This document shows positions 29,480 to 31,985 of a stretch of DNA of 64,000 nt, piece by piece. The translations under genes were made by a program, and so were the position numbers. Origin of the DNA: Gammaproteobacteria bacterium (GTDB lineage: Bacteria > Pseudomonadota > Gammaproteobacteria > JAJFKG01); the NCBI GenBank assembly GCA_965116795.1, contig OZ220716.1, positions 1,322,503-1,386,502 on the forward strand. The letters are read 5' to 3'. Under the pieces are notes generated by a model. The model was not told the origin of the DNA. It was given only the letters and a program-made list of their open reading frames with translations, and did no database searches. How positions within the stretch are numbered: the stretch's first letter is position 1; each line of letters begins with the position of its first letter.

Positions 29480-29999
29480 TTCTTCAGCTTTTCCTGACAT
29501 GTTAAAACTTGTCAGAGACAGAGCCGACAGGAAACATGAGCTAGCAATCTTGGACAGGCAGCTTGAAGCACAACGTGAAGGCCATGTTCAGCGTTTAGAA
29601 GAAATTGAAGTGCAAGCTGACATGGCTGAAAGCAAAGCACTGTATCAACATGCCAGTCTTCCAAGTCATGTAAAGTGGGTCGAAGCCTTGCGTGCATCGG
29701 TAAGGCCGGTAATAACGTATGCGTTCTTTGCTTTGTTTGTCTTTGTTAAAGTGATGGCATTAATTGCATTACTGCAACAAGGGTTCACAATAGTAGACAG
29801 TGTGTTAACGATTTGGGACGATGAAACGCAAGCGTTATTTGCGGCAGTAATGGCCTTCTGGTTCGGGCAGCGCAGCGTCACAAAATCCCGTCAATTGCAT
29901 CAGTGATGACTGCTTAAATAAATAGGCATAAATGACTGGCTATGTTTTCGATAGTAAGCGTTAATGGTGATAAGAAAACATTTACTGGAGATTAAAGCC

Positions 30000-30311
30000 A
30001 TGAACACAAACGCAAACACTTGCCACGTTAACATCACTATGATTGAAAATCCTGATGATAATTGCACACAAAGCGAAGTAAACGCCCTTATTACAGTATT
30101 TCGAGATGCACTCACCTGCATTGTTCCTACTCGCGCTAGCGAAGTGTGGATAAACCTAGGTGATTCTACCACAACACCCAAAAACGTTAAGGACTTTCAA
30201 GTGCGTTTAGGACGCTGTGAGCGGTTTGCCGGAAAACCGGAAAAATGGGCAGGGGAATTTACTACCGCCAGCAAGAAAGTTACCTTGATTGCACGAATAG
30301 ATAATCACTAA
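30000..30311 (+). CDS. Small paralog 1 of cassette array (unknown family)
   Basis: GGAG RBS; CTQSEVNAL..F..AL...W.GEF pattern shared with paralogs 2-4. Confidence 0.75.
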   Translation: MNTNANTCHVNITMIENPDDNCTQSEVNALITVFRDALTCIVPTRASEVWINLGDSTTTPKNVKDFQVRLGRCERFAGKPEKWAGEFTTASKKVTLIARIDNH

Positions 30312-30329
30312 TTGTCTCTCCTTGAGTTT

Positions 30330-30370
30330 GGCAACAGGCGCCTAATGTTGGCGTTTGTTGCCCTTTTTTA
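30330..30370 (+). terminator. Intrinsic terminator-like hairpin 1
   Basis: GGCAACAGGCGCC-loop-GGCGTTTGTTGCC followed by a T-run. Confidence 0.8.
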
Positions 30371-30551
30371 TTGGGTTAAACCCAATCTCCCCTACTCCAT
30401 CACCAAGCCCTGTAAAGCCGATTATTCCAGCCACATTAATGGTCTGCACATCAGCGATAACTGCTCGAATAAATAGGCATAATTGACTGGCTATGTCTTC
30501 GATAGTGAGCGTTAATTACAACGTAACGTTAACTTAACTGGAGAAAAAATC

Positions 30552-30863
30552 ATGAGCACATTAATCGAAAGACTGTTTTACAAACCCCTTATTTGGGATG
30601 TGAAAAATACCCATTGCACTAAACAAGAAGAAAATGCATTGTTAGACATTTTTGAAAAAGCCATGCAGCGCGCCGCACTCGTGCCTGCCAGTCAACTGCG
30701 CTTTGAATTGACGCGCATTGTACCTAAGCAAGCAGCATTGCACCCATTTGTTCTAACGATGCACGTCGACAGGGTATGCGGGCAAATGCAGTGGCGGGGG
30801 GTGTTTGAAAATGCAGATAACAGCAAAACATTGGAAGTGCTAGGCGCTTTAGAAAAAGAGTAA
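30552..30863 (+). CDS. Small paralog 2 of cassette array
   Basis: GGAG RBS; CTKQEENALL..FEKAM...GQMQWRGVF. Confidence 0.78.
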   Translation: MSTLIERLFYKPLIWDVKNTHCTKQEENALLDIFEKAMQRAALVPASQLRFELTRIVPKQAALHPFVLTMHVDRVCGQMQWRGVFENADNSKTLEVLGALEKE

Positions 30864-30880
30864 CCTGCCCTTTACACCCA

Positions 30881-30918
30881 GCCACAGGCGCCAACGTTTG
30901 GTGTCTGTGGCCTTTTTT
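30881..30918 (+). terminator. Intrinsic terminator-like hairpin 2
   Basis: GCCACAGGCGCC-loop-GGTGTCTGTGGC followed by a T-run. Confidence 0.8.
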
Positions 30919-31116
30919 CAGAGCGCAACGTCTTACCCCTATCTTTTCAATTAGCATGACAGCGCCCAAATTTATTTGTTATTCGACAAAATTTCTCATC
31001 AGTAAACACTGCATTGATTAACAGCAAAAATAGTGGCCATTTAGCGAAATATAACTTGCTATAACCTGCAGGTAGAGCGATTAATGTAATTGTTAAAACA
31101 AAACTGGAGACTTAAC

Positions 31117-31449
31117 ATGAAAACAGAAATTAACAACGAATATCACACTGAATATTACGAAAAATATTACACTAACATTGTGGACAATGAAGGCTTGACG
31201 ATTGCTGAAGTTAACGCCGCATTAGAAGCTTTCGAAAAAGCGTTAGACATCGCCTTTCAAAATTCAGAAGATGCGCTGGGCTTTGATTTGAAAGGCTTTA
31301 CACCGCAATGCACGCACATTGAAAATTTTGAATTTTCGATGGAGCGACAAATTGTTGACGGACAAATTCAGTATTGGGGAATTTTCACCGGCGAAGATGA
31401 CAAAGCCTTTTACCTTCAAGGCTGGGCAAGAAACAATAACGACGATTAG
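31117..31449 (+). CDS. Small paralog 3 of cassette array (acidic)
   Basis: GGAG RBS; LTIAEVNAAL..FEKAL...VDGQIQYWGIF. Confidence 0.78.
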   Translation: MKTEINNEYHTEYYEKYYTNIVDNEGLTIAEVNAALEAFEKALDIAFQNSEDALGFDLKGFTPQCTHIENFEFSMERQIVDGQIQYWGIFTGEDDKAFYLQGWARNNNDD

Positions 31450-31464
31450 CTCTCCAGGCGATTG

Positions 31465-31504
31465 GCCACATGCGCGCAACGTTGGCGTGTGTGGCTCTTT
31501 TTTT
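31465..31504 (+). terminator. Intrinsic terminator-like hairpin 3
   Basis: GCCACATGCGC-loop-GCGTGTGTGGC followed by a T-run. Confidence 0.78.
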
Positions 31505-31685
31505 GATTATGCCCGCAACTAACCCTGCTTGTTTTTTATTCCCCACAAACGCCACTGTGTTGGCTGTGTTGAATGACCACGGCATCAGTTAAAACTGCTG
31601 CAATTTACAGTGTTTTTTTACTGGCTATAACTCGTATACCGAGCCTTACTAATCACACCTTGAAAATTAAATAAGGATTATCACC

Positions 31686-31985
31686 ATGTCAACTGACATC
31701 GAAAATCGCACACCAATTATTTTTTATACGCACAATGCCCGTTGCAATGATGATGAGTTACGACTCTTGCTAACCAATTTTGAAATGACACTGCAGTACG
31801 TCGCTAATTTTAAAAACACAGTATTCAGATTTGACTTTAAAAATTCGATGCCACCACACAATTTGTTATTTCCGTTTAGTTTAACGATGAAACGACATCG
31901 CGTTGATAGTCAGTTTCAATGGCATGGCACGTTTAAACACCACAGCGGTTTGAAGCAATTGCAGCTAATGGGGATTTTATTATGA
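31686..31985 (+). CDS. Small paralog 4 of cassette array
   Basis: AAGGA RBS; CNDDEL..LL..FE.TL...VDSQFQWHGTF; the stop overlaps the lysozyme ATG (ATGA). Confidence 0.75.
   Translation: MSTDIENRTPIIFYTHNARCNDDELRLLLTNFEMTLQYVANFKNTVFRFDFKNSMPPHNLLFPFSLTMKRHRVDSQFQWHGTFKHHSGLKQLQLMGILL

Follow-up and report, generated by a model that had tools for sequence, protein, structure and literature searches.

What are four small, divergent genes doing between the two lysis genes of a decayed prophage? We asked this of an array (types A to D) lying between a holin-like gene and a phage lysozyme gene in a 64,000-nt stretch, hereafter the window, of the 2.45-Mb genome of a gammaproteobacterium (assembly GCA_965116795.1, contig OZ220716.1, positions 1,322,503 to 1,386,502; coordinates below are window positions on the forward strand). 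The array proved to be one state of a variable locus: 14 related prophage loci in the same genome carry from zero to four cassettes in their holin-lysozyme slot, with six protein types (A to F) among them. The reading that we favour for the whole, tentatively and at less than even confidence, is a moron-like shuffled cassette array whose diversified soluble proteins block host defence or host-control proteins.

A preliminary description of the window had reported a four-gene array with regular spacing, an upstream motif, ribosome-binding sites (RBSs) and three hairpins, and we found each of these where it had placed them (Table 1). The four open reading frames (ORFs) start 552, 565 and 569 nt apart. 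Their products had been called paralogs, which holds: identities of 24-36% were obtained for five of the six pairs (E 6e-17 to 0.002, four-sequence database), and A and D, which do not align directly, both score in one profile. Each leader consists of two blocks, CATCAG-N5-ACTGC, which the description had not mentioned, and a promoter-like core, CT(G/T)GCTAT-N12-(A/G)AGC-N-TTA, followed by an RBS, with the start codon 61-65 nt past the first base of the core. The sequence supports the earlier suggestion of self-contained expression units.

Searching the genome with a profile, we obtained 29 matches, 28 of them near full length (A 3, B 6, C 5, D 10, E 3, F 1). Reading frames are open in 26 of the 28 and disrupted in two; an insertion sequence (IS) interrupts a further gene. 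The family of lambdoid prophages that carries them, with terminase, portal and capsid of lambda type, is present in 11 near-full terminase, 10 capsid, 13 tail J, 14 holin-like and 14 lysozyme copies. Slot contents are A-B-C-D in the window, B-C-D at four loci, a cut C with D, B-D, D alone at three loci, A-E, A-E-F, a lone frameshifted E, and a hairpin without a gene; the slot at 1152k holds no cassette gene. D overlaps or abuts the lysozyme start in all 10 of its copies. The spacers between genes (about 240 nt: terminator, AT-rich stretch, core and RBS) are homologous end to end and mosaic across the 11 that we aligned. The spacer 3' of A leads into B in the window and into E elsewhere, with the switch near the ACTGC block; one spacer type leads to B, E or D; and holin-D modules fuse an A-type hairpin to a C-D-type or A-E-type spacer body. 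Recombination between these look-alike spacers very probably generates the gain, loss and swap of cassettes. Back-joints in contigs of four runs turned out to be other chromosomal (sister) loci, and no independent circles were seen in these contigs, which cannot show circles.

The simple tandem amplification in place that had been proposed for the array is not supported by these comparisons: content varies among sister prophages, the spacers are chimeric, and an exclusive clade of the six types is rejected. It had also been pointed out that all four frames are intact while both flanking lysis genes are dead. In the window this is so, the holin-like gene being interrupted by IS200 and the lysozyme by a premature stop. 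The contrast is local, since sister modules keep an intact holin in 10 of 11 cases and an intact lysozyme in 9 of 12, against 26 of 28 cassette genes; for the most part, the dead flanks are an accident of this one locus. Three sites in the genome carry identical copies of the IS200 transposase, so the break in the holin-like gene is likely recent.

Table 1. Features of the cassette array and its flanking lysis genes (window positions).
Feature	Position	Strand	Remarks
DUF6127 gene, first gene of the lysis module	28561..28865	+	Pfam PF19622, E 9e-15
Holin-like gene	28881..29906	+	phrog_6637; weak phrog_3427 holin; IS200 interrupts after codon 12
IS200 within holin-like gene	about 28916-29479		
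Cassette A leader	29898..29965	+	CATCAG-N5-ACTGC block 29898, promoter-like core 29936
Type A gene	30000..30311	+	103 amino acids (aa)
Predicted intrinsic terminator 1	30330..30369	+	hairpin and T-run
Cassette B leader	30449..30516	+	block 30449, core 30487
Type B gene	30552..30863	+	103 aa
Predicted intrinsic terminator 2	30881..30918	+	hairpin and T-run
Cassette C leader	30997..31085	+	block 30997, core 31055
Type C gene	31117..31449	+	110 aa; acidic, net charge -15
Predicted intrinsic terminator 3	31465..31505	+	hairpin and T-run
Cassette D leader	31583..31650	+	block 31583, core 31621
Type D gene	31686..31985	+	99 aa; without terminator; stop overlaps lysozyme ATG
Phage lysozyme	31982..32308	+	premature stop at codon 109 (sister copies 145-160 aa)

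To which family do the cassette proteins belong? Searched against 1.84 billion representatives, a profile of the six types retrieves 141 proteins at E 0.001, almost all of them 90-125 aa long; our 125-row family alignment excludes fragments and two long, likely spurious matches. The preliminary description could name no characterised family, and neither could we. No Pfam, NCBIfam or PHROG family matches more than one of the 125 members at E 0.05, the best PDB sequence match has E 0.17, the ESM Atlas gave no usable match, and PADLOC, run on eight proteins, gave no clear match and a single weak one (E 0.0034). Word-based sequence searches returned this genome's own proteins, or five matches. The AlphaFold2 models of types B and A (pLDDT 92.3 and 88.6) agree in their elements, namely a strand, a long helix (24-41), a further strand, a short turn and three strands, a predicted fold that the two types share. 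The type B model found nothing at E 0.001 with Foldseek in PDB and BFVD, and in a VIA fold search of 48,161 chains nothing reached Z 8; the best row, pseudopilin GspI (Z 6.1, root-mean-square deviation 3.3, 74 residues aligned), demonstrates neither a fold match nor a novel fold. Literature searches, judged by titles and the opening of abstracts, showed no description of the family or the locus; supplements could list such genes as hypothetical. These results point to an undescribed family of soluble proteins of about 98 aa.

Maximal 19-residue hydropathy is 0.3-1.1 across the six types and exceeds 1.6 in 2 of 125 members. By this measure the proteins have neither the transmembrane segment nor the signal peptide expected of an antiholin or spanin; a soluble regulator stays compatible. 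In the 125-row alignment the conserved positions are mainly those of the hydrophobic core and G83, with no invariant polar residue, and the members from other organisms (foreign members) conserve a basic ARKA/RE stretch. The family has mixed charge, with a median net charge of -2. Being small, soluble and without a catalytic signature, the protein presumably acts by binding other proteins. One 209-aa member, P0022, carries two tandem family domains, hinting at a dimer function. We also considered a type I or III toxin-antitoxin system and rejected it: there is no hydrophobic toxin peptide or known antitoxin RNA, and the proteins are soluble and 100 aa long.

We collected 139 distinct foreign loci from IMG/VR, metagenomes and genomes; they come mostly from two subgroups and are not a fair sample of the family, and the loci of the nearest foreign relatives (P0016, P0020, P0027 and P0024) lie outside them. 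Carriers include Ralstonia phage YO084_2, Ralstonia megaplasmids, Micavibrio, Kiloniella, Bartonella rattimassiliensis, Pseudochrobactrum, a Cellvibrionaceae genome and Ca. Megaera plasmids. The family gene is single-copy in all 139. A lysis gene lies at most 2.5 kb away in 106 loci; the gene follows the lysozyme in 51 and sits between a holin-like gene and the lysozyme in 44, of which 23 have a D-like overlap of stop and lysozyme start. Among 81 well-flanked loci, 15 have no lysis gene within 2.5 kb. The convergent neighbour in 58 of 128 loci is a gene labelled here as HrgA-like, and the 317-aa HrgA-like protein is without a Pfam or PADLOC match; other convergent neighbours are PDC-S11/DUF4268, GajB, a CBASS cyclase, HsdR and DndA/SspA. 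Different defence-type genes (HrgA-like, PDC-S11, GajB) end no more than about 3 nt from the stop of the family gene on the opposite strand (L017:1677-2630, L150:5297-6247, L127:5297-6238, L133:5297-7132). The present genome has no HrgA-like gene. The family, well folded by prediction, would be constantly carried by temperate phages of a large proteobacterial group, at the border of their defence hotspot. One of these loci (L017, G031:C1:57122-60295), in a genome of another family, is a degraded copy with a repressor-like gene, half a family gene, an HrgA-like gene and a lysozyme remnant.

In samples of genomes, matches occur in 1 of 60 related genomes, 5 of 399 of the class and 3 of 400 of the phylum, with one or two matches each; one same-genus and one same-family genome had none. 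Pattern scans for types B, D and E, run on contigs from viruses, genomes and metagenomes, turned up no relative.

Is the leader core a promoter? A genome-wide scan with the upstream motif returned 18 matches, all on the plus strand and all at cassettes. With a weight matrix, every one of the 28 cassette starts reaches at least 18.9 bits and no other site in the 2.45 Mb exceeds 13.9, a separation that is partly circular because the matrix was built from 20 of these same sites. The core can be read as a TTGACA-like hexamer followed after 17 nt by GTTAAT, GTTACT or GTTCAT; a consensus promoter scan did not have it among its calls. We infer from the layout that the core is a promoter, and since its -10-like hexamer lacks the A at -11, this promoter could have low activity, need an activator or be recognised by a different factor. 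The spacing does not fit the consensus of a sigma54 or sigma32 promoter, and a riboswitch was rejected as a reading of the leader; Rfam gave no match beyond a single chance row (E 0.98).

The core is not confined to this genome. A generalised form, (C/G)T(T/G)G(A/C/G)(C/T)-N15-(A/C/G)GC(G/A/C)TT(A/C)(A/C)T, lies upstream of 107 of 128 foreign copies (shuffles 0.016%); the expression was written from these same sites and matches 21 of the 28 cassettes here. Across 2.06 Mb of foreign flanks it occurs 114 times before the family gene and nine times elsewhere, and four of those nine sites head DUF3489, or DUF2924 with a serine recombinase. Scanning viral contigs with one core variant gave at least 137 loci, and in the first 80, which we analysed, 78 of 97 core matches head an RBS and an ORF (median gap 33 nt). 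The genes so headed comprise 15 of this family, 17 DUF6900, 17 DUF3489 and a remainder of 12 small clusters mostly without a Pfam match; the matches often stand in tandem, up to four. The core thus marks a suite of small accessory genes among these phages, for which cassettes in tandem, each headed by the promoter-like element, are habitual; what seems peculiar to this genome is that the tandem units are paralogs, with terminators added. Such a conserved promoter-like element could be used to mine for counter-defence candidates. The genome's own motif variant has four matches in viral contigs. We estimate that about 310 viral stretches hold one exact core variant, and core-headed tandem genes (DUF6900, DUF3489 and others of no known family) or a DUF2924-serine recombinase operon occur at L241, L276, L222, L231, L102-L105 and L077:2694.

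When would the cassettes be expressed? A co-oriented late gene would not need the core, and the core also heads an integration operon; for these reasons we consider expression early or in the lysogen, apart from the late operon, to be probable. The hairpins and T-runs 3' of A, B and C fold at -23.6, -24.5 and -21.1 kcal/mol, and the hairpin consensus shows compensatory change in 4 of 14 pairs over 13 copies; gene D has no hairpin downstream. These hairpins presumably terminate transcription. If they do, the terminators of A to C would stop late read-through into the lysozyme unless antiterminated, leaving the lysozyme to the D leader.

We compared the array with known systems. In the main outline given by Arbiol et al. 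2010 (PMC2839356), the PeSLs of the T4-type phages RB49 and phi1 are repeated intergenic units of a stem-loop terminator, an AT-rich stretch, a promoter and an RBS, and crossovers between units gain or lose genes. Excised mini-circles are a further feature of such cassettes. Relative to that outline, the array likewise repeats a stem-loop/AT-rich/promoter-like/RBS unit between genes, and shows gain and loss of genes with chimeric units and presumed crossovers. It differs in that its phages are temperate and lambdoid instead of T4-like and lytic with a strong consensus early promoter, that it lies inside a lysis module, that its cargo is one paralogous family in place of unrelated ORFans, and that its -10 is atypical. 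By analogy, the array appears to work like PeSL shuffling, yet it is no PeSL; shuffling of this type would extend from T4-like lytic phages to co-resident prophages.

A moron, as summarised in PMC3714127, is an additional gene that brings a sigma70-like promoter and a factor-independent terminator of its own, interrupts a region contiguous in related phages, often has a distinct G+C content and is expressed in the lysogen. The cassettes agree with this summary in the predicted terminators (absent after D) and in interrupting a holin-lysozyme region that is contiguous, the two genes adjoining directly, in Ralstonia phage YO084_2, G105 and G166. Unlike a moron so described, they form up to four tandem paralogous units, of which the last lacks a terminator and is coupled to the lysozyme, and their G+C content (array 0.44 and 0.39, flanks 0.43 and 0.41) is not anomalous, distinct G+C being a non-obligatory feature. 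Since the promoter-like core is conserved in other phages and also heads other small phage genes and an integrase operon, each cassette is likely an accessory, moron-like gene rather than a lysis gene.

Anti-CRISPR and counter-defence clusters, found in late-gene regions of temperate phages, consist of small soluble proteins with their own promoter and variable tandem content in a fixed slot. Our array shares the small soluble proteins, a promoter-like element and the variable content in a fixed slot; unlike an anti-CRISPR/aca locus it has no aca-type helix-turn-helix (HTH) regulator beside it, its neighbours being the holin-like and lysozyme genes, and its members are paralogs and not generally acidic. 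Sequence searches, and fold searches with the type B model, gave no match to a known inhibitor. Variable cargo slots beside phage lysis genes include the P2/P4 defence hotspots, the APSE toxin cassette and the phage WO eukaryotic association module. The present slot resembles these in its fixed flanks and exchangeable cargo, and in other phages defence genes abut the family gene; unlike in those slots, the exchangeable unit is a family of promoter-bearing paralogs. An integron array, with promoterless cassettes, attC sites and an integron integrase, was rejected: each gene has its own leader, and no integrase was found among the 47 window ORFs scanned, no attC model being run.

How do the proteins evolve, and how old are the types? 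Pooled pairwise counts over copies that are not independent give within-type ratios of nonsynonymous to synonymous change (dN/dS) of 0.19 for B (6 copies), 0.19 for C (5), 0.12 for D (9), 0.08 for A (2) and 0.06 for E (2), against 0.13 for the lysozyme (6 copies). The cassette proteins are under purifying selection, like the lysozyme. The preliminary description had considered the regulatory parts better conserved than the proteins. Between types, whose proteins are 17-44% identical, this stands weakly, with DNA identity of 58-79% for the promoter block and 53-60% for coding sequence (shuffled means 57 and 56); within types it fails, the protein being selectively constrained. A tree of 32 proteins places B, C, D and E together with three foreign proteins (support 99/94), and A and F with one (95/82); A and C are each nearer to relatives in other organisms than to the remaining types. 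The tree rests on 100 columns, C has a long branch, and the rows were picked after a quick 125-row tree. The six types as an exclusive clade are rejected (p-AU 1.7e-57) and the six with four foreign proteins are not (p 0.26). Since foreign proteins group within them, the six types are older than this genome; an older expansion and a collection from different phages both fit their origin. With its 28 alleles of six divergent types, this single genome offers a natural series for mapping specificity.

What, then, do the proteins do? In the favoured reading, the holin-lysozyme slot of the lambdoid family would host a variable array of moron-like accessory cassettes, gained, lost and swapped via similar spacers. 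Each would be expressed independently of the lysis programme, from an accessory promoter of the phage, its small soluble product would bind and block a host defence or host-control protein, and the divergent types would widen the range of targets. Counter-defence or host takeover as the role of the protein is a possibility that we hold with as much reserve as the whole, or slightly more. In its favour we count the varying slot contents and mosaic spacers, the purifying selection, the core shared with non-lysis genes, the foreign loci with no lysis gene nearby, the defence-type convergent neighbours, and a small soluble protein in which no polar residue is invariant. Several points weigh against it. 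The function is reached by deduction throughout. Foreign single copies evolve at the pace of the lysozyme (median identity 71% for both in the holin-slot group; 65% and 75% in the other group), which is slow for a counter-defence protein. Their position beside lysis genes in most foreign loci, a third of them in the same slot and half of these with the overlap, fits a lysis role, and defence neighbours suit a defence role equally well. The family is not generally acidic, which rules out a DNA mimic. No genes other than those of the cassettes follow the core in this genome, the link to an integrase coming from other phages and one locus. Finally, a crude test finds a hairpin with T-run after no more than 18 of 124 foreign copies, which makes the complete moron layout a peculiarity of this lineage. 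The earlier suggestion of an arms-race family is thus half retained: a conflict role is still the best guess, but the single-copy relatives diverge no faster than lysozymes, and only the types of this lineage lie far out (type D shares 27% identity with the holin-slot group, against 66% for its lysozyme).

A bolder form of the favoured reading seems improbable to us: a shuffled repertoire of one inhibitor family would let a dozen co-resident prophages distinguish kin from rival, each drawing a subset of six specificities from a shared pool via PeSL-like spacers, with the slot as an integrase-free counterpart of an integron for phage-phage conflict; the promoter class over it would be the hallmark of a hitherto undescribed regulon of accessory genes in a large proteobacterial phage group.

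The same cassettes could instead be expressed in the lysogen and protect the host by superinfection exclusion or abortive infection, each type acting against different competitors among co-resident prophages. Moron anatomy, in the outline of PMC3714127, is compatible with this, as are the defence hotspot beside the family gene in foreign loci, a genome with 11 near-full terminase, 10 capsid and 14 lysozyme copies, and the separate cassette subset of each prophage. Host protection is rather unlikely all the same: the proteins have no membrane anchor, PADLOC recognised none clearly, and the family gene remains a steady single gene while the adjoining defence cargo changes.

The protein could also be a cytoplasmic lysis regulator, antiholin-like or an endolysin partner, in which case the cassette promoter would also drive the lysozyme and extra types would tune timing. 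Proximity to lysis genes in 106 of 139 foreign loci, the overlap in 23, the contact of D with the lysozyme start in 10 of 10 copies and a rate of change equal to that of the lysozyme all fit. We nevertheless regard this as quite unlikely. The promoter-like element is common to non-lysis genes, the family gene is found without lysis genes (including in plasmid-borne phage regions of Ca. Megaera), and three sister modules (1152k, 95k, 363k) have an intact holin without a cassette gene. Similarity of the family protein tracks that of the lysozyme only in the holin-slot group (Spearman 0.51), not in the lysozyme-first group (0.00) or between groups (-0.02). Pairing a foreign member with its own lysozyme in complex prediction gave a score of 0.00, which was counted neither way.

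Slightly less likely again is a phage regulatory or replication accessory, for instance an RNA polymerase or repressor partner, within the core regulon, the types forming homo- or heterodimers. That regulon contains DUF3489, which has a weak HTH match, and a recombinase operon, and the two-domain fusion and the basic stretch of foreign members would suit such a role; no HTH or other DNA-binding fold matched the type B model, however, and six divergent types would have no clear reason. A protein released at lysis to act on a eukaryotic host of this probably host-associated bacterium would be in keeping with giant WD40-type ORFs after the lysozyme in several modules, with large genes of no known family in the same slot of two distant prophages, and with weak longin-like fold rows (Z 5.5), but Z below 8 is background and the family occurs commonly in phages whose bacterial hosts differ in lifestyle, which leaves this very improbable. 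Least probable of all is neutral recombination debris: the window's prophage is decayed, two of 28 genes are broken and one more is IS-cut, yet dN/dS is 0.06-0.19 and the motif is retained at 28 of 28 genes.

The decayed prophage region of the window also holds a Wadjet operon, hicAB, a PDDEXK_2 gene and an AlbA_2 gene (7477-14296, 27894-28521, 42239-43150, 44051-45172). We found no literature on DUF6127, the domain of the first gene in the lysis module. In two distant prophages the holin-lysozyme slot is occupied by large genes without a Pfam match, of 397 aa (L014:708-1901) and of 651 and 255 aa (L015:902-3581). Giant ORFs of 1000-3000 aa lie downstream of the lysozyme in most of 12 sister modules, reminiscent of a eukaryote-association module, and those of the window (33108-42098 and 15306-22952) carry WD40 repeats. 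An identical second copy of hicAB lies at 1095k of the genome.

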